Source: Candidatus Saccharimonadota bacterium | Lineage (GTDB): Bacteria; Patescibacteriota; Gracilibacteria; Absconditabacterales; Absconditicoccaceae | Assembly: GCA_000503875.1 (NCBI GenBank) | Contig: CP006913.1 | Span: 810,001-842,000 of the forward strand | Direction: 5' to 3' | DNA length: 32,000 nt | Made by a program: the position numbers and the translations under genes | Shown: positions 2,215 to 30,888 of the stretch, piece by piece | Layout of the letters: each line of letters begins with the position of its first letter | Numbering within the stretch: the first letter of the stretch is position 1 | The notes under the pieces: model-generated | The model's database searches: none | What the model was told of the DNA's origin: nothing | The model's input: the letters and a program-made list of their open reading frames with translations, nothing else

Positions 2215-3189
2215 CTATTCAGCTGTTTTCTTTTTAGGAACAATAATTTTTACAATCAATCCAAGAATAATCAATGCAAGAATTACATACACCCAAGAAA
2301 AAATAAACAAAGATGCAGTTTCTTTTATAATAGTTGGTTGTTTAAATTTTTCATCTATACCTGTTGCATCAAATTCAAACAAAGGTTCTCCAATAACTGA
2401 AACTCTAGCTGAAAACAATCATTTATAAAAAGGGACTATTCCCAAGTTTACAGATATTTCATAAACATCTCCTGGTAACAATTTTCTTATAGGAGCATCA
2501 AATGGTCTTTCAAAACCAAGGGGGTTATATAGTTTTCCAGATAAAGAAACATTTTGAGTTAAGTTTCCATTGTTTTTTACATTAAATTTCAACATCAAAT
2601 CTCAATCTTCATTAACACTTGCTCAGATATTTTTATTTGACGAATAAAGTGATCACGTAACTGGAATAAGTTGAACAGTGTTGGATATAGAATCTTCTGA
2701 TCATACAAACAAATTAAGATGGACTGCTTTACGAACAACAAGATTAAACATTCCTCACATATTTTCAACTTCGGCTTTACCTAACTGATATGCAAGACAT
2801 CCATAATACATACCCATAGATCCCAAAGGGGGAGAAACCATTTCTTTTACAGTAATTGAAGAATTTCATGATAAAATCAATTGTCTATTTGAATTATCTA
2901 CCAAGAATCTAGCAAAATCGTTTGAGGTATCACATAATTGATTACCTCATTTACTAAAAGAAGCTTTGGGAAAAGAATATTTTACAACAATATTTTCATT
3001 AGATTTATTTTCAATATATATACAAAGTTCTTGTTTTTGTCACGGTTCTATCATAATTGTATATTTATTAACAAGACTACCAGTACCGTCATTACAAAAT
3101 CACAAGGAAACATCTTTTATTCCTTCTTGAGCAAAAGAAAAAGAGCTAAACATAAAAAGTCCTGCCAACAAAAGAAAATACTTTTTCAT
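2215..3189 (-). CDS. Surface protein paralog C: signal peptide and C-terminal membrane anchor (324 aa)
   Basis: Runs from ATG 3189 (MKKYFLLLAGLFMFSSFSFAQ) to TAG 2215-2217, frame checked. Motifs LGFCNDGTG and FNLVVRKA. C-terminus SWVYVILALIILGLIVKIIVPKKK (track ORF 2215..2418). Confidence 0.7.
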
Positions 3190-3352
3190 ACACTATTATC
3201 ATAAAAAAATAAAAATCAGCAATTACTTGTATTGTTCACAAGCAAAAAAGCAAACAAACTCATTGTTTTTCTCCTAGCTTATAACAAAAATATTTTACAA
3301 AACAGTTGACAAAAAGCCATTTTTATCGTTACAAAAAAAAGTATTCAAAAAT

Positions 3353-7658: not shown

Positions 7659-7686
7659 TTGACAATTTACATTAAATAATTAAAAT
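7659..7686 (+). promoter_or_regulatory. Sigma-70-like promoter for the repeat protein gene
   Basis: TTGACA (7659-7664), 16-nt spacer, TAAAAT (7681-7686). Confidence 0.35.
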
Positions 7687-7719
7687 ATAGATATACATTT
7701 ATTAATAAAAAAATTATTC

Positions 7720-9951
7720 ATGAAAAAAACCAGCTTTTGAATACTTCTTTTAGCATTATTTTCTTTGATAGGAAGTACTACTTTTGCAAGTGATTGTAAA
7801 CAAGTAGAGTTTGAAAATGGAGATGGAAGGGTTTGTGTAAATATAGAAAAAGATGATGATGAAACATTTCAATTAGAGACAGACATTGAAAAAGGTAATT
7901 GAGCATTACGATGCTGAATTCTTCTTTCCAACAATACCTACAAAGAAATCGCTGGTTGTAACAATGAATTTTTTGTAAGTAATTCAAAAGAACAACTTAT
8001 TAAATTATATATCAAATTAGGATCAGAGTATCCAACAGATTGGGACGGGAAACCAAACAATAAAACTGAACGATTATTTCCTCAATGGATGTATGATTTT
8101 GAGGAAGGAGAATGGACAGACGGTATTTCAAACAATGATGATGACGATGACGATAACGATGCCGGAGATGTTGATAATTTCTATGTAACTACTGACGATA
8201 CTACGCCTTCTATCAATCAACGAGTTGATCTCAAAATAAAAGCTCGTGACTCAGATAACGGTACGGTAACTGATTATACTAATGCTGTTGAATTCGTTGT
8301 TTATTACAAAACTTCTTCATCTTCTTCTTGGAGAGAAACTACTTCTTCTACGTATTTTGAATTGGATGATGATTATGAAGATGGATATGATTTCTCTTCT
8401 TCTGATGATGGATACGTAACTTTAACTGATGCTATCAGATTCAAAAAAGATTATGAATATAAAGTTGAGGTTGTTGATGAAGATGACGAAGATATCTTAT
8501 GATACAAAACCTTTGATATAGGTGGTACCAGTAACGATGACGATAACGACGCTTGAGACGTTGATAATTTTTATGTAACTACTGATGATACTACGCCTTC
8601 TATCAATCAACGAGTTGATCTCAAAATAAAAGCTCGTGATAACGGTAACAATACAGTAACTGATTATACTAATGCTGTTGATTTCGTTGTTTACTACAAA
8701 ACTTCTTCATCTTCTTCTTGGAGAGAAACTACTTCTTCTACGTATTTTGAATTAAAATCTACTTATAATAATGGATACGATTTTTCTTCTTCTGATGACG
8801 GATACGTAACTTTAACTGATGCTATTAGATTCAAAAAAGATTATGAATATAAGGTTGAGATTGTTGATGAAGATGACGAAGATATCTTATGATATGAAAC
8901 TTTTGATATCGGTGGTACCAGTAACGATGACGATAACGACGCCGGAGATGTTGATAATTTCTATGTAACTACTGATGATACTACGCCTTCTATCAATCAA
9001 CGAGTTGATCTCAAAATAAAAGCTCGTGATAACGGTAACAATACAGTAACTGATTATACTAATGCTGTTGATTTCGTTGTTTACTACAAAACTTCTTCAT
9101 CTTCCTCTTGGATAGAAACAACATCTTCTACATATTTTGAATTAGATGATGATTATGAAGATGGTTACGATTTTTCTTCTTCTGATGACGGATACGTAAC
9201 TTTAACTGATGCTATTAGATTCAAAAAAGATTATGAATATAAGGTTGAGATTGTTGATGAAGATGACGAAGATATCTTATGATACAAAATATTTGATGTT
9301 GGTTGAAATGATACTATAAGTGACGAAGATCTAGATAATTTTTATGTAACTACCTATGATACATATCCAGATATTAACGAACGAGTTAATCTATTTATTA
9401 AAGCTCGTGATAACGATAATAATACAGTAACTGATTATCGTGGTACGGTAAAATTTGATGTATATTACAAAAAAACTTCATCAAGTTCTTGGACAAAAAC
9501 AACATCTTCTACATATTTTGAATTAGATGATCAATATGAAGATTGATATACGTTTAAATCCAGTGATGATGGTTACGCAACACTATATTATGTTATTAAA
9601 TTCAAAAAAGATTATGATTTTAAAGTAAAAATTGTTGATGATAATAATGACGATATTTATGGTGAAAAAATCTTTTACATTTGAGGAGACTCTTCTGAAA
9701 CTGATTGATACACTGCAGCAGAAATAGAAAACATAGAAAAGGTATATAATTTACGAGATAAATTAATACAATCACTCAAAAGTTCTTCTAGTAAACTTAG
9801 ATATAATCAAACACGAATAACTATGAGCAATGATTTAAAAGAAGAAATGAGAAAAATTATAAATGATGAGGATGATAAAGAATATGATGATTACGAAGAA
9901 TTTTGAAAAGCTTTCAACGAACGATATTCATATACATTAAGGAATAAATAA
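7720..9951 (+). CDS. Secreted acidic tandem-repeat protein (743 aa)
   Basis: Runs from ATG 7720 (MKKTSFGILLLALFSLIGSTTFA) to TAA 9949-9951, frame checked line by line. It has four repeats of about 130 aa (NFYVTTDDTTPSINQ.VDLKIKARD...YKVE.VDEDDEDILGY) separated by poly-Asp linkers. Only fragment 8089..8502 appears in the standard-code track. Confidence 0.8.
8131..9690 (+). repeat. Intragenic tandem repeat: 3 near-identical 390-bp units (8131, 8521, 8911) plus a diverged fourth (9301 to about 9690)
   Basis: The landmark string ttgataattt(c/t)tatgtaact recurs at 8171, 8561 and 8951 with an exact 390-bp period. Units 2 and 3 are identical over long stretches. Confidence 0.9.
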
Positions 9952-19480: not shown

Positions 19481-22400
19481 CTATGCAGAAGCTGAAGTAG
19501 GCGGTACTTGTTCAGGAGTAGCTGCTGGTGCGGGTACATCTTTTTCAGAAACCCCTAGTCTTGCAGCCATCTCAGCATCCACAAATTCTCTCTTTCTTCC
19601 ATATTTCTTGGAAGAATATTCTTTGAGAATAGGTACGATTTTTAGGTTTTGATAATCCTTAGTATAGATAGCATTCATACTAAATACACGAGTTGTTGAG
19701 TTATCAATATTGAGTTTAATATACGCTTTATAATTGGCGATTCCTACAATATCTTGTCCTGATAATACCGGAGCATATTCTTTTTCCAAGAATTCTGCAT
19801 CGGGAGCACCGACCTTAAATGATTGCATTGTTCCAACGTTACCAAACACGGCTGCTTTTACATCTCATTTTCCTCCTCCATCACCACCAAGTCCTTTAGC
19901 TGGTTCTAGCTGTGCAATATATTGATGCGCCATAATCAAGCAAAGTCTATATTTTCTGGCTTCTGACAAGATATCCGCAAAAGTTCCTGAAACAAAGTTT
20001 TGGAATTCATCGACATAGAGATAGAAATCTTTTCTGTCTTTTTCTGGCATTTTGGCTCTCGCCATAGCTCATGTATAAATTTTAGAAACAATAATCATAC
20101 CCAGAAGTTGTGCATTTAACTCCCCAATTCTACCTTTACTGAGATTGATAATCAGAATTTTTCTATTGTTCATTACATCTTCGAACGTAAACGCTGATTT
20201 TGTTTGTCCAATAATATTTCTAATCAATCTATTGGTATTAAATGATACGAATTTAGCAGACAAATACGGGATAATTTCTTGTTTTTCTCTATCTCCCATA
20301 GAAGCAAATGTCTTATCCCGCCAGTTTCTTACCGTAGCATTGGTTACTTTTTTACATTTATATTCTCTATAGCTTTCATCAGTAAATAATCTGACCACAT
20401 CAAGCAAAGTTGGTCTATCATCAAAATCTTCCAACAAGGTCAAACTTCCATATTTAAAATATTCTTGCAACCTTGGACCAAAAATTTCTGGACCAAACAT
20501 CTTCAAGAAAATTTCTGTAGCATCATTTACTACTCTATCTGCTTCATCCAAATTACTAATTTCATAGAGATTAAGTCCCATTGGTCTTTCTTCATTTCCT
20601 GCGTCGAAATAGATAACATCTTTTGCTCTCTCTTTTGGAATATAAGCAAGGACATCTTCTGCTAAATCGCCATGCGGATCAATCAAACAGATTCCATCAC
20701 CATTCCAGATATCTTGTCTTGCCATTGTTTGCAAGAATACGGATTTACCGGTACCTGATTTTCCAATACAATAATGATGTCTGGTTCTATCCTCTCTTTT
20801 CATATAGACCGGAGAATAGTTGTTTCTGTAGATATTTGCTCCAAGAAGCACTCCATCTTTAAATACTTTATATCCATGAATTTGTTTTTCTCCAATTTCT
20901 TTTACAAATTTATGCCCATCTTTTTCTACAATTTCTTTGCCTGTAAGTTGCTCAGAAGTATATTCAGTAACTGGTGTTAATTTTTCTTGTTTTTCTGTTT
21001 TTGTTCCTACTGCTCGATGATTTGGATATTCTTCCAAAATAGAACTAACACTTCCATTTTTATAGTTCTCTGCAAATTTACCATCAATAATATATCCGCC
21101 AAAATCTTTGAGTACTGGCAAATTTTCTGGTGCAGGCAACACTTTATATTGCATCCAAGAAATAGCTGGTGAACGGTTATATGCATTATCAGGGAAATGG
21201 AACAATGAAGCTAATTCATTTACTCCAAAATAATGTTTACTAAAGAAGAAACTCGTCAAACCAAACAATGCTGCAAACTTTCGCATTGGTTTAAAAAAGA
21301 ATCAGAATACATCATGTTTATTATTTTGATCACAAAATTCATTTCCATATTCATCTCCATATACATTGTACGAACTCGTTAATATATCCAAATTTGCATC
21401 CAAACTTTGTTTATTATCAGAAGAAGAAATCAACATTAATCAAGCTTGATAAAATGGCAAAGATGCTTCTTCACCCATACTATTGAGATAATCTTCTTTC
21501 GCTTTTACCATACGTACAAAATCCTTTCCTCCAACTTCACCTCCAGCCTGCTCTTCTTGTGGATTTTTATCTTTAGGACCACTAATCAACATTGATATAA
21601 GCGTAAAAGGATTGAGATATTTGAAAAAGCTTTTAATTTTGTAATGAGGATCGGTATATTTTTTATCATTTCTATAGAGTCCATTTGCCCATTTTTGAGC
21701 TTTTTTATTCATCCAATCACCAACGGGTTTGATAGGCATCACAATACTTACCGTATCATATTGAGAAATTTTTCCCATAGCATCGATAATATTATTAATC
21801 GGATCATCAGACATCTGTTTATAAATTCTGATATTATATACTTGGTTCTTTTTGGGTACCAACGGCATAATATCATAATATTTCTTTTTAAACAATTTTG
21901 GTGTTTCAATTCTTTCTATAGAACAATCGGAATATTGCGCAGAAATTGCTCCTTCCAAAATCTTTTGATATTCTGGGTAAACACCCATAATAAATGATAA
22001 TTGACCATCTTCATAATGATAAATCAGAGTTACCTTTGGTTTATAAAATAGTCGATGTAAGAACGAATCCATTGTACTCAATTCTCCAAGTTTGTGAACA
22101 TTATGAAAAACCTGAGACATACGACCTATTTTTTCCTTCATATCTTTTGCAAGTTCTTTTTGTTGCTCACGATCAGATTTACCATCATTTCTTGGAAACA
22201 TCACCTTGAGATAAATCATTCTAGGTGCGTTCAATACATCATAACAAAAATGAAGTAATTTTCTGATAAATTTTGTAAAAATTATTGCCAAAAGAGCAAT
22301 ACTAACACCCCACAAAATATAATACCCCCAAGAAGAGATAACATCCAATCAAAGAGAATCCAAAAAAGAAGTAGAAGTTCCTGTTGTTGTTTGAACTTCT

Positions 22401-22621
22401 TGAGAAGGTTGATTTACGACTACATCTGATTCCTTAGGTGCAACATAAGAAGTTTTCTTAAAAAGGAAATTTTTTACGCTAGAAACGCCTCCCATACGTT
22501 GGATACAATAAGATTTATCTGCTCCCCATGCGGTATTGGTGATTTTAGAAATATTTTCTGCCAAAATAGGATTTTTATCATACACGGCTTGAAGTTGTTG
22601 TTCGCACTGAATTAAATTCAT
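19481..22621 (-). CDS. Type IV secretion coupling-protein-like P-loop ATPase (VirD4/TraD-like), single 1046-codon ORF
   Basis: Five track ORFs (19481.., 19865.., 20069.., 21440.., 22349..) are all in one frame, separated only by TGA (junctions translated). N-terminal region and TM helix YYILWGVSIALLAIIFTKFI. Walker A IGKSGTGKSVF followed by ICLIDPHGDL. Walker B-like YLYVDEFQNF. Also RKYRLCLIMAHQYIAQL. TAG at 19481-19483. Confidence 0.75.
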
Positions 22622-22656
22622 ACGTGACTATCATTAAGGTTTAAAACTCATTAACA

Positions 22657-22891: not shown

Positions 22892-23578
22892 ATGGAACTC
22901 TTAACAGAAATAGAACAAAGAAAAAAACATCAATTAGAAAAAATATCAAATAAGGCTAATGCTATTGTTAGCAAGAACAAATTTGATTTAGAAGAAAATC
23001 TCAATACAAAAAGAGAGCTAGTTTTACAATTTAAAGAAATAAAAGAAGAAGGTACTGATGAAGATGCTGATATAAAAAAATCATTAAAAAGAGCTCATAA
23101 TCGAGAACATATTCTTTTAGAAAACAAGGTAGAAGATAAGAAAACCAATGAAATATGTGTTGAAGTATTGAGAAATATATCATGTTATTCATGTATAAAC
23201 AAGCCTATTATCTTTCAATTAATAAAAGAATTGGATGAAAACGAAGAAAAATATATTATCAAAAGTCGTAATTATTACATCGATCCAACAGGAGAAAAGA
23301 CAGCTATATTAGAACAAAGATTAAAAGAAGGGAACGAAGATTCAAAAGATTCTCTTAGAAATAAATTTAAAGAAAGAATGCAAAACTGAGAACTAAACAA
23401 ATACGGAAACGCAGGATTGGGATATTTAGATATAGCGAAAAAAGTAAAAGATTTTAATATAACGCCATTTATCTATGAATTTACTAAACAAAAAGATGGT
23501 ACGGTAAAATTTGACCTTACGATCACTATCCCACAAAAGAAAAGAGAAAAAGCAATTGATAATGAGATTTTATCATAG
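22892..23578 (+). CDS. Lys/Glu-rich hypothetical protein (228 aa)
   Basis: Track ORF 22892..23389 continues through TGA 23387-23389 to TAG 23576-23578, frame checked. Confidence 0.6.
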
Positions 23579-23618
23579 AAATCATCAAATAAACAATTTT
23601 GTATAAAATAGACTGGAC

Positions 23619-23664
23619 AAAACACAGAAAATAAATATAAAACATCTGTGTTTTTGTTTTTTTC
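23619..23664 (+). terminator. Hairpin plus T-run terminator
   Basis: Stem aaaacacag / ctgtgtttt with a large AT-rich loop, followed by tgttttttt. Confidence 0.45.
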
Positions 23665-23672
23665 ATACTACA

Positions 23673-24263
23673 ATGGCTAAAAAAATAAACACCATTAAAT
23701 TAACCGAAAGGAAAATCAAGAATTGAACCAATATTCATGGACGCGAAACGCCTGAAGATCTTTTTCAAAAACGAGAAATAAAAATTCAAACTATTGATAA
23801 TGAAATTTCCAAAGGGATTGTTGAAGCACTAAAAGCTACCCCTGAAGAATGTCAGAAGAAAGTTAGCCACATTAAATGACTCCAAAAAACAACAAACGAA
23901 GAAATATCTAATATTCTTCAAGAGTTTTCAAAAATAACTATAAACGAATTACGAAGAAAAACCAAAAATAAAATAAGGGATAGTCTTGAAAAAAAAATAC
24001 AGGAAAATTTTGATATTTGTGAAGATAAACGAAAAAAAATAATGGAAACAGAAGAGGATGTAAATGACTTGAAAAGGTCAAAATCTGAAAGAGAAAATTC
24101 ACAAAAAATAATAAATGAGTTAGCTAAAAGATTCAAAATCACCAAAAATAATACAGTAGAAATTATCTCTTTATTGGAAAACGATTCTTTTTCACAAGAA
24201 ATACTAAAAAAATTACAATGATATGAAGCTTACATAAAAAATTATTACCCACATACAAAATAA
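23673..24263 (+). CDS. Lys/Glu-rich hypothetical protein (196 aa)
   Basis: Runs from ATG 23673 to TAA 24261-24263, frame checked line by line, with 3 in-frame TGA. There is no forward-strand ORF in the standard-code track; only the antisense ORF 23918..24145 is listed. Confidence 0.55.
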
Positions 24264-24412: not shown

Positions 24413-27376
24413 ATGGATAAAAGAGAATTTCCCGCAAGTTTCGATCATACAACAACGAGACAACTCTACGACCAACGAGAGGCAAAAAAACTATTTACAC
24501 CAGATGATAACCATAGCTATGATGGTACTTTTGTCGTGCCTATTCCTCCGCCAAATGTGACAGGAATCCTCCACTTAGGACATGCTATGACCATGGCTCT
24601 CGAAGATATTATGATCAGACATGCTCGTATGAACAACAAAAAAGCTCTTCGAGTACCTGGTACTGACCATGCTGGAATTGCCACACAAGTTGTAGTAGAA
24701 AAAAAAGTTGCCAAAGAAGAAGGAAAATCTAAAAACCAATTCGAAAGATCTGAATTTATCAATAAAATACGAGATTGGGCAAGTTCATGTAGATCAACAA
24801 TCGTCAATCAGACCAAAATGATGGGGTCTGCCTGTGATCGATCAAGAGAACAATTTACTCTCTCAGAAAAGCTTTCTCGCGCCGTTAGAAAATCATTTGT
24901 AAACCTTGCAAATGCACAAAAAATATATCAATCAAATTATATTATCAATCGATGTCCTAGATGTCAGACCGTACTTTCTGACTTAGAAGCCGAACACAAA
25001 GACACAGTAGGAAAACTCTATTATATCCAATACTTTAATTCAGATAAATCTGCGAGTATCACCGTTGCAACCTCTCGTCCAGAAACTATGTTTGGAGATG
25101 TGGCAATTGCTGTGCATCCAGAAGGGCAACGAAAAGAGCGAATTGGTAAAACAATTTGCATCCCAATATCCAACAAGGAGATACCGGTGATTTCAGAAGA
25201 TACGGTGGCACTAGATTTTGGTACATGAGCGCTCAAAGTAACTCCCGTACACGATCCTGTCGATTTTGCCCTTGGACAAAAACATCATCTCCCTCTAGAT
25301 ATTTTTGCATTTGATAAAGCAGGTATCTGGACTGAAGTTTCTGGTGAATTTAGCGGAAAAGATAGCAAAAAAGATTTCGCAGAATTTATGGAACAATTGG
25401 AACAAAAAGGACATCTTACAAAAACCGAAGACTATCCAACGACCGTTCCTCACTGTGAAAGATGTAACACGAGAGTTGAACCCTTAGTTTCCAAACAACG
25501 ATTTGTTGACGTAAAAGAATATGCAGACAAATCTATCAACGCCGTAAAAACAGGTGAGACAACGATTCATCCTGCGAGATTCAACAAAACATTTTTTGAT
25601 TGGATGGAAAATATTAGACCTCGATGTATTTCTAGACAACTTCGACGAGGACATAGAATACCAGTTCGATACTGCGAAAAATGACACGCTCATCCTATGG
25701 ACGAAGATGCTTTTTTCGAAAGCATCGAACAAACAGATGGATTTGTATTGGGACATATAGTTTTCAACCTTGTTGCTGATGATAGACTAGGAAAAACATT
25801 CTCTATCGAGAAATTAGTAGATCTTCTCAACACAACAAGTCTTACTCCACAAAATGGAACAATCGGAGATATTTATCACACAATTTACAGCACAAAATTC
25901 AAAGATAATCAAACATTACTCAATCAAATAGAAACAATAAAAACAGCCATTACAAACAAAGATATAAATCAGATTACATTATTATTAAATAGTATTCCAA
26001 ATATCAAAACAACTGACAATGGACAATTCACATTAGAATTTGCATGTAAAACTTGTGGAAGTACAACAATACACCAAGATAATGATGTATTAGATACGTG
26101 GTTTTCAAGCGCGCTTTGGCCATTTGCGATTATGGGACGACCAGAAAATACGCAAGATCTCGCTGAATATTATCCTAGTGAAGTATTAGAAACAGGGTAC
26201 GATATTATCTTTTTCCGAGTTGCGAGAATGATGATGATGGGGTTTGCCAACACCGGAAAATCGCCATTCAAACACGTATACTTGCATGGTCTCGTAAGAG
26301 ATGAAAAAGGGAAAAAGATGTCCAAATCCGCAGGAAATGGAATCGACCCAATAGAAATTATCAACAGTCATGGACCAGATGCCCTCAGATTAAGTCTTGT
26401 TTTGGGTGCGACTCCAGGAAACGATCTCAAATATTCATTGAGCAAAGTCGATTATGCTTCTAGATTTTTGCATAAGCTTCGAAATGCCTGTAAATACGTA
26501 GATATGAAATTTGAAGCAAGCGAATTATCTTGGGAAGAAGAACGTGATTTTATCACCACCAACTTCGCAGAAACAACAGACGCCGACAAATGGATCCTCA
26601 ATATTTTCGATCAACATATCGACCAAATCAATCAATATTTCAAAGATTTTATGTATGGAGAAGCTGGAAATAGCATTATAGAATTCGTTTGGAATTATTT
26701 CTGTGACTGGTATATCGAGATCACCAAATCATCACAATCAACCGTAACACCGCATATTCTTCGTTACAGCATTGGAACTATTCTCAAATTATTGCATCCA
26801 TATGCACCATTCGTCACAGAAACTTTACGAGATTTATTTAGTTTCAAAGGACATTTGATCCAACAATCACGACCAAAAACACTAGGCAAAGAGCCAGCTC
26901 GTGAGACATTCAATCTCTTCACCGAAGTTATCTGAGCAATTAGAAATCTGAGACAAGACAACGACATCAAACCAAACGAAAAAGTAAACGTTTTCATCAA
27001 AGGCATCGCCGACAAACAAGCATGGACAGAATATATTCCATTGATCACCAAGCTCAATACTGCTCTTTCGGTAATTATTATGAATGACAACGAAAATATG
27101 CAAGACAACGTCTATATCCAAGTGGTAGAAACACTAACCGTAGGTGTCCAGACGCACCAGGAAATCAATTGGGCAGAAGTTGAAAGCAAATTAACCAAAG
27201 AAATCGACCAGTTAACCAAGCACATAGAAAACCAAGATCGCATGCTCAACTCAGGCGATTTTCGCTCCAAAGCCCCTGCCCATATCATCGCTGATAGGGA
27301 AAAAAGCTTACAGGAGAATAGAGAAAAATTGATAAAGATGAATGAAGAGTTGGAGAATGTTAAGAAGAATAAATAG
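24413..27376 (+). CDS. valS: Valyl-tRNA synthetase (987 aa)
   Basis: Four track ORFs share one frame and are joined by 3 TGA; for example 25229-25231 is the middle Gly of FGTGALKVTP. HIGH motif PPPNVTGILHLGHA, KMSKS motif KKMSKSAGNG, DVLDTWFSSALWPF, and a C-terminal coiled coil. At least 15 CGA codons fall on ValRS-conserved Trp positions. Confidence 0.97.
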
Positions 27377-27387
27377 GAAAGAAAAAT

Positions 27388-27413
27388 CTGTACTTTTTTG
27401 TACAGGTTTTTTT
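27388..27413 (+). terminator. Rho-independent terminator after valS
   Basis: Stem ctgtac / gtacag with loop tttttt, followed by gttttttt. Confidence 0.55.
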
Positions 27414-27524
27414 AAAAATTCATAGAAGAAACTTCTTTTGAAAAAGGGAGTGAAATTTGAATTGTTATTTTAGAAAGAAATTAGTATAGTGTTTTTTAAT
27501 GTTTTAATTATTTTATAATATATC

Positions 27525-27827
27525 GTGTGAAGACATACTAATGCTCAAAATTTATCTATAACTATATATAGCATTAACAGTGTTATTTTTGCTATACGAA
27601 CAAGTGGTTTCATATCATCATATATTGCTAACTCATTTAAATTGACATGGTTAGCTGAGAATTTTATTCTAACTCCAATATTATTTATTCTATTTGGCGT
27701 AATAACTGTATATTATGTAAAAAAATATCAAATGAATATTGCATATAGCATAATAGTATCAATATTTCACTCTATATTATTACCCTTTTTAATACTAAAA
27801 TCTCACAAAAATGAATGATGAAATTAA
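27525..27827 (+). CDS. Small polytopic membrane protein (100 aa), start uncertain
   Basis: The frame is open from TAA 27516-27518 to TAA 27825-27827 (checked). GTG 27525 is the first canonical start codon, just after a TATAAT-like box. The protein has three hydrophobic segments. Confidence 0.4.
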
Positions 27828-28482
27828 AATAATTAAGATAATACTACGACCGGTTGCAATTATTATGTTATGAGTTGGTATTTTTTCGTATGTTACAAAA
27901 ACGCCATTATATGAATGACAGTATTCTGATATAAAATATCCTGAAGACACAACCTGAGCCACTATAGAACAACAAACAATAACTTGAGAAAGCATTACAT
28001 GAACAATAATAGACATACCAACAGATCCAAGAACATATTTTGATTATATTATAGAATATGGTAGTTGATGAATTGATTATATTTCAATAGCCCCGACAAA
28101 TCAACCATTAATGAATTCGAAAGCATGAAGTGAAAACACTTCAAGAATGCACGATTATTTATACAAAAATAGAATTAAATTTGATATACCAACAACAGAT
28201 AAACAATGATATATTATGTTTGTAACATCAAAGCCAGTTTCAAATATCAGTAATATTTTTTTATGAGTTAACGGCTCTACAATATGATGGTTAAATAAGA
28301 AAGAATCATTATCAGTAGAAAATAAAAACGAATATTTATACAAACTGAACCACATACCACTCATTGGGAATAATGATTATAATTTTCCAAAAGATTTATC
28401 GTGAAAAACAAATATTTATATAAATGCTGTGGTTTGAGAAAGCGACAATAAAATAGAAAAAATTATTATATTTTTCCAATAA
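27811..28482 (+). CDS. Signal-anchored hypothetical protein (223 aa), TGA-dense
   Basis: Runs from ATG 27811 to TAA 28480-28482, every triplet checked. By my count it has 13 in-frame TGA against 4 GGN Gly codons. N-terminal TM helix PVAIIMLGVGIFSYV. Confidence 0.6.
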
Positions 28483-28536
28483 CATCAACAAAATATTTTT
28501 CTAGAGAAAAACTAATTTATTTTCTAATCAAACATA

Positions 28537-29007
28537 ATGTTTAAGAAAATTATTGTGGCTTCTTTATTAATATCAGGAATATTTATTACATGATGTAGCA
28601 TAGAAAAACAAAATAGTGAGGACAAAACAACAATGACAGAAAATCAAATCTTTGATAAAAAAAAGGAATGCGCTAACTATAAAGACAAAATTATAGCGGA
28701 AATCGAGAAAAGAAATACTGAGTATACATACGATTGACAAGAGAGTTATGAAAAATTAGGATCTATTTTTTATAGTATACAGAAGAATACCTGCATGTAC
28801 GATACACGATGATTTTTTAAATATAACATAGATTGAAAAACAGAAAGTAGAGATGTAGTAACAGTATATGATTATTTTTCAAATGAAAAGGTTCTTCAAA
28901 CACCAAATTTTTGTAAAGATTCCAAAGAAAAATGGATTCCTTATAGACAATGAATATGTCTTGTAGATGATTTTTCACAGAAACTTTATGAACTTAAATG
29001 AGAATAA
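28537..29007 (+). CDS. Putative lipoprotein (156 aa)
   Basis: Runs from ATG 28537 to TAA 29005-29007, checked. In the signal plus lipobox MFKKIIVASLLISGIFITGCS, the lipobox Gly is TGA 28591-28593. 6 in-frame TGA. Confidence 0.65.
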
Positions 29008-29028
29008 TTTTATTATTATATATACATA

Positions 29029-29787
29029 ATGAGCGGTTCTTGATATATTGAAGAGTTTATTAATTACACAAAAAAGCCTGAATGGATTTGGTGAATAATA
29101 TTCAGTGTATTAACAGTTATATTATTTCGAGCAAAAAAATTTTTAATAAATTTTTTTTTCCGAACATTACGTAGAATAGATAATTTAATAAAATATATAG
29201 CCACAAAAGATTTATGATACTGAAACATAAACATAATTAGTGATACAGAAACGTACTTCATAAAATATGAAAAGCAAGGAAATTGACCAAAATTAAATTT
29301 AGCTAAAGGTCACGCTAAAATAGCGAAATATTCGGAAATAGAAGACAATGCTCGAAAAAAATATGAGAAATATGAAGAACTAAAATGATCTAAACGAATT
29401 GCTCATCATGAAATAATAACAAACGAAGAAGCAACTCATTGATGATATTATTTTTTTGAAAGAAAGTTTTCATTAAATTTTGATATATCAAGGATTAAAA
29501 AAGCTTATTTATATATAATCGTAGATGATGAATGCGAAATAACAATAAATGAATCCGATTTAGCAGAAAATATAAATTGAGAAAAGAAAAAAATAACCTC
29601 CAATGAAGCACTAGCCACATTAGATATAAAAGATTATTTGAAAAAAGGAGATAATCTAATAAAATTAAAAATCAGAAATATATCGTTTGAAACTCGTACA
29701 GATAATCTATTTGTAAATAGTACGGAAAAATGGAAACAAAATCCATATTGAGTTAAATATTGAATATGAATTAAATATATTAAATAA
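29029..29787 (+). CDS. Membrane-anchored hypothetical protein (252 aa) with a possible jelly-roll C-terminal domain
   Basis: Runs from ATG 29029 to TAA 29785-29787, checked, with 12 in-frame TGA. TM helix WIWGIIFSVLTVILF. The C-terminal YIIVDDECEITINESDL...LDIKDYLKKGDNLIKLKIRN recalls galactose-binding-domain-like modules; this is a similarity judged by eye only. Confidence 0.6.
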
Positions 29788-29826
29788 TTTCAGAATCCCC
29801 CTCCTTTACCCCTCAACCCTCTCTCA

Positions 29827-30285
29827 ATGCCCTACAAACACACCCAATTTAGTTATCTAATGCTAGTTGTTACCTTGATCGTACTAGCACTTTTCGTATG
29901 GGCGTATATAACGGCTTCTGCTGAGCCTGTTTCGTACAATTCTGGTCCAAATTTTGCTATGACGAGCATAATGGCTTTGATTGTTTTTCTTCTTGCTTCC
30001 TTCATATCACTCCAAGTACGTATTGATGAAAAACATATAGCAATCAAATTTGGATACGGGATTTTCAAGAAAAAGTTTTCGCTCGATGATATCCTATCTG
30101 CTAAAACCGTAAAAAATCATCGATATTATGGATGGGGAATCAGAGTATGGTTTTGGCCCAAGATGTGGATTTTCAATGTTTCTGGTTTTGACGCAGTTGA
30201 AATAAAAATGAAAAATGGCAAAACATACAGGATAGGTACGGACGAACCCAAAAAATTAGAACAAGCAATTCTGAAGATGGTGTAA
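29827..30285 (+). CDS. Two-TM membrane protein with a Trp-rich C-terminal domain (152 aa)
   Basis: Intact ORF in any code from ATG to TAA with no TGA. TM helices YLMLVVTLIVLALFVWAYI and IMALIVFLLASFISL, followed by YYGWGIRVWFWPKMWIF. Confidence 0.7.
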   Translation: MPYKHTQFSYLMLVVTLIVLALFVWAYITASAEPVSYNSGPNFAMTSIMALIVFLLASFISLQVRIDEKHIAIKFGYGIFKKKFSLDDILSAKTVKNHRYYGWGIRVWFWPKMWIFNVSGFDAVEIKMKNGKTYRIGTDEPKKLEQAILKMV

Positions 30286-30348
30286 TTTTCTTTTGTAAAA
30301 AGAAGCAAAATAGATACATTAAGATTGATTTATTCACTAACGAATAGG

Positions 30349-30888
30349 ATGAATAGAATTCAAAAATCAAAAGAATTTGCAGAAGAATGTTTAAAAGACA
30401 TAGATTCGGCACATGGGATAAAACATGCTGAGACTACTGCAAACTTTGCTAAAATTGTTTCTGAAAAAGAAAATATCAATACAGAATTATGTATTATTAC
30501 AGCACTTCTTCACGACATTGGAAGAAGCAAAACATGGAAACAAGAAACAATTGAAGACAATCATGGAGTTGATGGTGCAAAAAAAGCAAAAGATTTTCTT
30601 TTTTCATTAGAATTATCCAATGAAGAGGTTGATATGATTTGCGAAGCAATATCCCAACATTGTTTTCCAAACATTCAAACAAATCAAATTTCAAAAATAT
30701 TGCGAGATTCAGATAAATTAAATTCATTTTCAAAAGAAATGAAGTTGGAATATATCAAATATTGGAAGGAAAAAGGATGGGATGATGAAAAAATTACTGA
30801 ACAAATCAAAAAAGAAAGAGAATTTTATTTTAAGACATTTTACACGAAAACCGCACAAAAGATAGCAAAAGAGAATTTTACAGTATAA
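30349..30888 (+). CDS. HD-domain phosphohydrolase (179 aa)
   Basis: Contains HGIKH...ALLHDIGR (H...HD) and later RDSDKL. ATG 30349 is preferred over the TTG 30325 start used by the track. No in-frame TGA. Confidence 0.8.
   Translation: MNRIQKSKEFAEECLKDIDSAHGIKHAETTANFAKIVSEKENINTELCIITALLHDIGRSKTWKQETIEDNHGVDGAKKAKDFLFSLELSNEEVDMICEAISQHCFPNIQTNQISKILRDSDKLNSFSKEMKLEYIKYWKEKGWDDEKITEQIKKEREFYFKTFYTKTAQKIAKENFTV

Follow-up and report, generated by a model that had tools for sequence, protein, structure and literature searches.

A TGA-rich islet of four accessory genes behind valS in an Absconditabacteria genome: compositional codon usage and candidate defence-island cargo

Introduction

What occupies the gap downstream of the valyl-tRNA synthetase gene (valS) in an Absconditabacteria genome, where a standard-code reading leaves the plus strand empty, and why are the genes found there so rich in TGA codons? 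We addressed this question on a 32,000-nt stretch (hereafter the window) of contig CP006913.1 (assembly GCA_000503875.1, positions 810,001 to 842,000 of the forward strand; coordinates below are those of the window), deposited as Candidatus Saccharimonadota bacterium and placed in the Absconditabacterales. An initial annotation made from the letters alone had placed four tightly packed same-strand genes, here g1 to g4, at 27525-29787, and had proposed that their TGA saturation hides them and bars them from standard-code hosts, and that they are candidates for lineage-specific envelope or host-interaction functions. We find that the four genes are real and that their TGA saturation is compositional, a pattern usual for this lineage's AT-rich accessory genes. 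On the whole, we consider it probable that they form an accessory islet in a variable genomic slot, made of two separable gene pairs that are likely defence- or accessory-island cargo.

Results

The four plus-strand frames are genes

Translation with TGA as Gly and CGA as Trp displays g1-g4 as packed plus-strand open reading frames (ORFs) that cover 97% of the interval 27525-29787. g1 (27525..27827) encodes a 100-aa small membrane protein with 2-3 transmembrane (TM) segments and a GTG start; g2 (27811..28482), a 223-aa type II signal-anchored protein; g3 (28537..29007), a 156-aa predicted lipoprotein with the lipobox I-T-G-C20; and g4 (29029..29787), a 252-aa TM-anchored protein whose C-terminal part (residues ~60-252) is a galactose-binding-domain-like beta-sandwich. 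The layout is operon-like, with a 17-nt overlap between g1 and g2 and gaps of 54 nt (g2-g3) and 21 nt (g3-g4), and the terminator scan found no internal terminator within g1-g4. The four genes are probably read as one transcript from a promoter near 27462-27490, where a promoter-like 29-mer of the form TTGTTA-N17-TATAGT lies 5' of g1 on the plus strand (27462..27490; 9/12 in the promoter scan).

Read with table 11, the plus strand from valS to 29788 contains no ORF of at least 100 aa and the standard-code track holds minus-strand ORFs only, as would be expected if the plus-strand frames were chance ORFs or pseudogenes and the short minus-strand ORFs the expressed ones. The length of g1 alone is compatible with chance (at least 103 codons in 11% of 1000 dinucleotide shuffles), and random AT-rich frames resemble TM proteins. 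However, the four longest plus-strand ORFs free of TAA and TAG sum to 747 codons, far above the shuffles (mean 261, maximum 410); all four frames have homologs, with ratios of non-synonymous to synonymous substitution (dN/dS) of about 0.13-0.37 across g1-g4, hence <0.4 throughout; TGA occupies invariant Gly columns and CGA invariant Trp columns; and the AlphaFold2 (AF2) model of g4 reaches a predicted local distance difference test score (pLDDT) of 89. The conservation tests thus refute the chance-ORF view, which we hold to be extremely improbable. Given the homologs, the dN/dS values and an ORF length beyond that of the shuffles, g1-g4 are all real genes, at the positions initially proposed; neither dN/dS near 1 nor broken frames, either of which the initial annotation would have taken as a refutation, was found.

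The window sequence is also present in contig DPJE01000005.1 (GCA_003543185.1) and in a sediment-metagenome assembly at ENA, and its closest relatives are metagenome-assembled genomes (MAGs) labelled Candidatus Absconditabacteria, some of them mislabelled Peribacteria. The supposed invisibility of the cluster is real for the code-11 calls of the NCBI MAG record (L082, GCA_003543185.1), which miss g1-g4 and leave L082 7028-9512 empty, break valS into 4 fragments and cut many neighbours into pieces. It does not extend further, as the genes are already in public protein sets: the ENA/Logan protein calls include each of the four, translated with Trp at TGA, and NCBI nr contains code-25 translations of g2, g3 and g4. 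These NCBI versions (P0022, P0024 and P0025), which carry Arg at CGA, were the queries for structure and HMMER searches.

TGA encodes Gly and CGA encodes Trp

Both reassignments had already been published for Absconditabacteria (table 25, UGA=Gly and CGA/CGG=Trp; Shulgina and Eddy 2021, PMC8629427), and the initial annotation had proposed TGA=Gly and CGA=Trp for this DNA. The invariant columns of valS, g2 and g4 bear this out. The ORFs of the window are only sensible with TGA as a sense codon: TGA encodes the Walker A Gly of YchF (G12) and MiaA (G77) and the Gly of the DnaA RELEGAL motif, and TGA272 of ValRS sits in the GTGALKVTP motif. Among the CGA codons of valS, 12 of 17 lie opposite a Trp of the Thermus ValRS 1gax, including the WW of ISRQLWWGH. 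Within the islet, CGA123 of g4 is opposite Trp in 39/39 homologs, while TGA138, TGA139 and TGA241 are opposite Gly in 37/40, 39/40 and 36/38, TGA fitting GG and NPYG. The 13 invariant Gly columns of the g2 family hold 59 TGA and 19 GGN codons, with switching between TGA and GGN in 5 of the 13, and its single invariant Trp column is split between 3 TGG and 3 CGA; CGA25 of g1 is opposite TGG in the homolog on the related locus L096. Reading TGA as Trp (code 4) was rejected, as it would mean ~5% Trp and conflicts with the invariant Gly columns. No tRNA gene was found in the window and no RNA family (Rfam) match in 27000-30200.

TGA saturation follows gene GC content

The TGA/GGN counts are 3/2 in g1, 13/4 in g2, 6/2 in g3 and 12/4 in g4, versus 3/45 in valS; the 31 TGA against 10 GGN that the initial annotation had counted in g2-g4, and its 3 TGA in valS, are exact. 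The islet spans 2.3 kb at 25% GC (0.24-0.26), versus 0.38 in both flanks, and its TGA share of Gly codons is 34/46 versus 129/551 elsewhere in the window (Fisher p=8e-12). In a set of 180 ORFs drawn from the window and from loci related to it, the TGA share falls with gene GC (Spearman -0.63, p=4e-21), from 68% at GC <0.24 to 17% at GC >0.36. Compared with the other low-GC genes (519/863, 60%), the islet (74%) shows no significant difference (p=0.065). Restriction-modification (RM) genes of relatives reach TGA/GGN counts of 28/5, 30/2 and 14/1, i.e. 85-94% TGA. The saturation, first presented as a property of the cluster, thus tracks low GC lineage-wide, and those RM genes are more saturated than the islet.

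We then compared these shares with a neutral expectation built from 4-fold third-position composition. At low GC, this expectation is ~0.77 and the islet, at 0.74, is close to it and therefore at mutational equilibrium; high-GC core genes display 0.17 where 0.51 is predicted, an approximately threefold under-use, so that it is the core genes and not the islet that are the odd ones. This deficit suggests that conserved or highly expressed genes are under selection to avoid the reassigned codon. Overall, these data indicate that the TGA saturation of g1-g4 is compositional. TGA being the most AT-rich Gly codon in the lineage, its share in low-GC accessory genes, presumably under weak codon selection, would drift near the value set by mutation bias (~0.77), and core genes such as valS would retain GGN. 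TGA under-use is typical of core genes generally, for example valS (24413-27376) and the gene at 19481-22627.

Alternatively, saturation could be adaptive, locking the genes to code-25 hosts or making their translation depend on how much tRNA-Gly(UCA) is available. The first in-frame TGA lies at codon 2-21 in each of g1-g4, which makes them untranslatable elsewhere; genetic isolation by recoding is a published idea (discussed in PMC8080830); and the core-gene deficit does reveal some selection on TGA use. This selection, however, takes the form of avoidance in core genes rather than enrichment in the islet, which lies at, not above, the neutral expectation. Moreover, the TGA share tracks GC smoothly over the 180 ORFs, and a few TGA already block standard-code translation, so that saturation adds nothing. 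We regard an adaptive origin as very unlikely.

The islet lies in a variable slot behind valS

The islet is inserted between conserved genes. On its left, valS (24413..27376, +; E 1e-173 to the T. thermophilus ValRS 1gax) has orthologs 82-92% identical in four sister species (loci L001-L004), and valS and a downstream FemAB-like gene are conserved across all four. On its right, a conserved membrane protein gene with 0 TGA and no family match (29827..30285, +) has orthologs 92% identical in L001 and L002, located beyond their own, different slot contents. A GC-containing hairpin with T-runs on both sides (27388..27405; terminator scan), conserved in L002 and L003, is a putative terminator-like end of valS and left slot edge; similarity to these sisters ends past it. 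The slot carries 1.5-2.9 kb of cargo in L001-L004, different in each, and nothing resembling g1-g4. Its families include HEPN_AbiU2, AbiEii, DUF6731 and RhuM, with HEPN_AbiU2 (2e-15) in L001, and AbiEii (1e-27), a weak AbiEi match and an HEPN_AbiU2-like ORF (by homology to the L001 ORF) in L003. Because the flanks are conserved and the cargo differs, including AbiEii and HEPN_AbiU2, the slot is a variable, defence-type hotspot between conserved genes. No integrase, other mobility gene, tRNA or flanking repeat was found in the slot.

Past the right flank, an HD-domain gene with 0 TGA (30286-30888, +) is lacking between conserved neighbours in L001 and L002, and L001 carries a RhuM-family gene at its position; the variable region therefore reaches past g1-g4.

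Sequences 5' of g1 and g2 recur in other contexts. The promoter-like 29-mer upstream of g1, TTGTTATTTTAGAAAGAAATTAGTATAGT, is identical at L089 6703-6731, on an unrelated Absconditabacteria contig, directly 3' of a g2 homolog and ahead of a gene for a methyltransferase; this element may serve as a portable promoter or mark the edge of a cassette. DNA similarity to L083 begins 46 nt 5' of g2, in a cassette-like manner. At L083 2379-3594, 5' of the g2 homolog, higher-GC ORFs resemble phage NinG and a ClpP-type protease (by eye), with a weak DUF3127 match nearby; they may be a prophage remnant.

These observations raise the possibility that the islet was recently acquired from a code-25 donor of lower GC (a different Absconditabacterium, or a phage or plasmid of one), the islet having kept the codon habit of the donor. 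The GC difference between the islet and its flanks, the variability of the slot among sister species, the cassette-like similarity to L083, the 29-mer common to the islet and L089, and the NinG-like and ClpP-like ORFs adjoining g2 in L083 would all fit. The slot is nevertheless devoid of integrase, tRNA and flanking repeats; the IMG/VR scan found no viral contig with g2, and a tblastn search of plasmids and phages with g4 found no match. The synonymous divergence (dS) of g2 from its closest DNA-level homolog is 0.62, as deep as that of valS from a sister (0.58), so that a transfer is not demonstrably recent. Such a recent transfer, which is compatible with the explanation that we prefer, is a possibility we hold tentatively and with some doubt.

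g1-g2 and g3-g4 are separate pairs

Since the slot lacks g1-g4 in four sister species and the pairs occur separately elsewhere, the islet is not a fixed four-gene unit, as a co-occurring cluster would have been, but consists of two pairs, g1-g2 and g3-g4.

g1 has two strong hydrophobic segments (47-65 and 72-90). Its homolog on L096 (56% identity, E 1e-41, dN/dS 0.37), which has TTG where g1 has GTG, adjoins and overlaps a g2 homolog on the upstream side. The initial description of g2 as signal-anchored holds: its architecture comprises an N-terminal TM segment, a disordered Gly/Thr-rich linker and a conserved alpha/beta sandwich (AF2 pLDDT 75), which is predicted to face outward. Foldseek against PDB and viral models gave weak, generic sandwiches only (E >=3e-3: carbohydrate-binding modules (CBM), Cry domain III, malectin-type), so that g2 is assigned no fold. 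The 19 homologs of g2 (45-79% identity, dN/dS 0.13-0.28) contain no Pfam domain, and the family was found here only on contigs with TGA=Gly/CGA=Trp usage (Absconditabacteria-type).

The g2 homologs reside mostly among RM and other defence genes. On L096, the g1-g2 homologs are followed by an Eco57I-like type IIG RM enzyme and then by g3-like lipoproteins; on L083 and L084, a lone g2 adjoins an Eco57I-like type IIG RM enzyme; on L089, g2 adjoins a methyltransferase-containing RM-type block (motifs read by eye) and GmrSD, HEPN and ICEA genes; on L086, it lies near GmrSD, and on L087 and L088 near an integrase, SocA_Panacea and a CD-NTase fragment.

g3 is a predicted lipoprotein, as initially proposed. 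Its signal peptide and lipobox, MFKKIIVASLLISGIFITG followed by C20, fit [LVI][ASTVI][GAS]C (motif reading only); the lipobox Gly is a TGA codon, and g3 has four more Cys. The lipobox recurs in homologs, as FFTG-C on L090 and VLAG-C in a 209-aa lipoprotein on L096. On L090, a g3 homolog (34% identity, E 7e-16) that keeps the lipobox and the Cys pattern lies directly 5' of a g4 homolog, forming a g3-g4 pair without g1-g2; the g3-like ORF of L096 matches at E 8e-7. No further g3 relative was found among 5.8e9 proteins, and a word-indexed search returned only self matches for g3 and g4. Neither a g3 alignment nor an alignment of g4 and P0033 gave a match when scanned against metagenomes, the back-translated patterns being probably unable to match TGA/CGA-rich DNA.

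The prediction that g4 is TM-anchored with a carbohydrate-binding-like fold was supported. Foldseek with its AF2 model retrieved 233 PDB matches at E <=1e-3, with glycoside hydrolase family 2 (GH2) N-terminal sugar-binding domains and CBM35 at E 5e-6 to 1e-4 and probability 1.0, and the g4 family profile retrieves GH2 chains from PDB (E 1.5e-3). A weak match to Glyco_hydro_2_N (PF02837) occurs in 14/56 family members (best E 1.1e-5), g4 itself lying below every Pfam threshold, including that of PF02837. The full HMMER scan gave 55 relatives of g4, the closest being 62% identical, on L090 (dN/dS ~0.13). Most aligned members have the invariant Trp and Gly columns expected under standard-code translation; g4 is therefore not lineage-specific, at variance with the initial proposal. 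In most members, a 2-TM hairpin carries basic residues at both cytoplasmic sides, and g4 has 4 K/R after its TM; this charge pattern predicts that the beta-sandwich lies in the cytoplasm. The g4-type domain is found, in other bacteria, downstream of a CAP12/PycTIR-type TIR (PADLOC Effector TIR 2e-44, PycTIR 1e-31), C-terminal to KAP/PifA-like NTPases, and also after TPR repeats; two family members adjoin a DUF4062 protein and an AAA_15/21 ATPase.

These features bear on the lineage-specific envelope or host-interaction function initially envisaged. Such a cluster would serve an episymbiotic or predatory cell in host contact, with glycans on the host surface as the ligands of g2 or of the g4 domain. 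Absconditabacteria have been reported to invest in elaborate surfaces (PMC8080830), g2 is predicted to expose its sandwich domain extracellularly via a flexible linker, g3 is a predicted lipoprotein and g4 has a carbohydrate-binding-type fold. On the other hand, the same slot lacks g1-g4 in four sister species; the g4 family is widespread beyond Absconditabacteria, its domain occurring in fusions with TIR and KAP NTPase domains, which are typically cytoplasmic; its 2-TM hairpin is predicted to put this domain inside the cell, contrary to a surface role for g4; and RM and other defence genes dominate the g2 contexts. Rather than to an episymbiosis function, the genomic contexts point to defence-island cargo, and we consider a host-contact cluster unlikely.

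Other features of the window

An ORF at 7684-9951 (+) encodes a 756-aa secreted-looking protein rich in Asp, Ser and Thr, within which a 390-nt (130-aa) unit is repeated in tandem 3.9 times over 8144-9641, the copies being 86% identical. Three adjacent paralogs on the minus strand (448-1446, 1424-2209 and 2215-3192; 25-29% identity, E 1e-15 to 1e-26) each have a signal peptide and a C-terminal TM anchor, and the first, 448-1446, is TGA-rich (17 TGA versus 9 GGN). Finally, the ORF at 23570-24229 (-; 9 TGA, 2 GGN) overlaps that at 23607-24263 (+), which has homologs 61-63% identical in L002 and L019; the minus-strand ORF is probably spurious, an antisense frame to the 23607-24263 gene.

Discussion

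The explanation that we favour, and hold to be probable, is that of a 2.3-kb, 25%-GC accessory islet, in an SR1 genome with UGA=Gly and CGA=Trp, lying between valS and conserved genes, with a compositional TGA content. Its first pair would combine a 2-3-TM protein (g1) with a signal-anchored protein exposing an outward sandwich (g2), and its second pair a lipoprotein (g3) with an inward sandwich (g4), each pair being found on its own as well in related genomes. They may act as membrane-associated modules in phage or foreign-DNA conflict or exclusion. Such a conflict role is the best-supported guess for the pairs and the most likely one, drawn from genomic association only; a role in host attachment is less likely.

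Several points weigh against this explanation. The 74% TGA share of the islet is nominally above the 60% mean of low-GC genes, and a small extra effect is possible; the codon set consists of ~180 greedy ORF calls over ~200 kb, a part of the genome, with a few spurious antisense ORFs. The predicted topology derives from the positive-inside rule only, and most contigs with g4-family members are too short for genomic context. Finally, searches of g1-g4 against Pfam, NCBIfam, PADLOC and PHROGs gave 0 matches above threshold, with signal-peptide-type noise only, so that the defence role is by association.

A more specific proposal, speculative and in our view improbable, is that g3-g4 form an undescribed two-gene membrane conflict module and g1-g2 a second accessory module riding with RM systems. 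The former would act in anti-phage defence or abortive infection, the GH2_N-like sandwich of g4 being a cytoplasmic, TM-tethered and portable sensor of a type coupled in other bacteria to TIR or KAP/PifA-like NTPase effectors. As it stands, the islet is no new kind of system.

With code 11, entire gene clusters drop out of the annotation of this MAG and valS is broken into four pieces; translation with TGA=Gly and CGA=Trp recovers them. For the evolution of codon reassignment, the locus displays TGA near mutational equilibrium in AT-rich accessory genes and ~3-fold under-used in core genes. The g2 and g4 families are uncharacterised candidates for defence-island cargo in a phylum whose defence repertoires are poorly known.

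Compared with known systems, the genetic code itself is that of Absconditabacteria, without difference: TGA on invariant Gly and CGA on invariant Trp. What is added is a gradient of TGA use, from ~6-17% of Gly codons in core genes to 60-94% in accessory genes; we found no description of such a within-lineage gradient in the literature searched.

The slot resembles a defence island in its conserved flanks, its low GC and a cargo that differs from one sister species to the other and includes AbiEii and HEPN_AbiU2, as well as in the location of g2 homologs beside type IIG and other RM, GmrSD and HEPN genes. It differs in that g1-g4 match no known defence family and that the slot has no integrase or mobility gene.

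The beta-sandwich of g4 matches GH2_N (PF02837) and CBM35 domains in fold. Unlike GH2 glycosidases, g4 has no glycosidase catalytic domain; unlike GH2_N and CBM35, its domain hangs on 1-2 N-terminal TM helices, with a predicted location in the cytoplasm, and in g4 relatives it comes after TIR or KAP NTPase domains. Given this predicted location, a glycan ligand for g4 is uncertain.

Cap15 and PycTM are TM-anchored, ligand-sensing effectors of CBASS and Pycsar systems. g4 is similarly built, with 1-2 N-terminal TM helices and a C-terminal beta-rich domain, and a relative carries a TIR of CBASS/Pycsar type upstream of the g4-type beta domain. In contrast to them, g1-g3 and the flanks include no cyclase-like gene, and no PADLOC effector model matched g4, P0033 or P0040. 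The fold of g4 is GH2_N-like, distinct from those of Cap15 and PycTM, and its partner is a lipoprotein.

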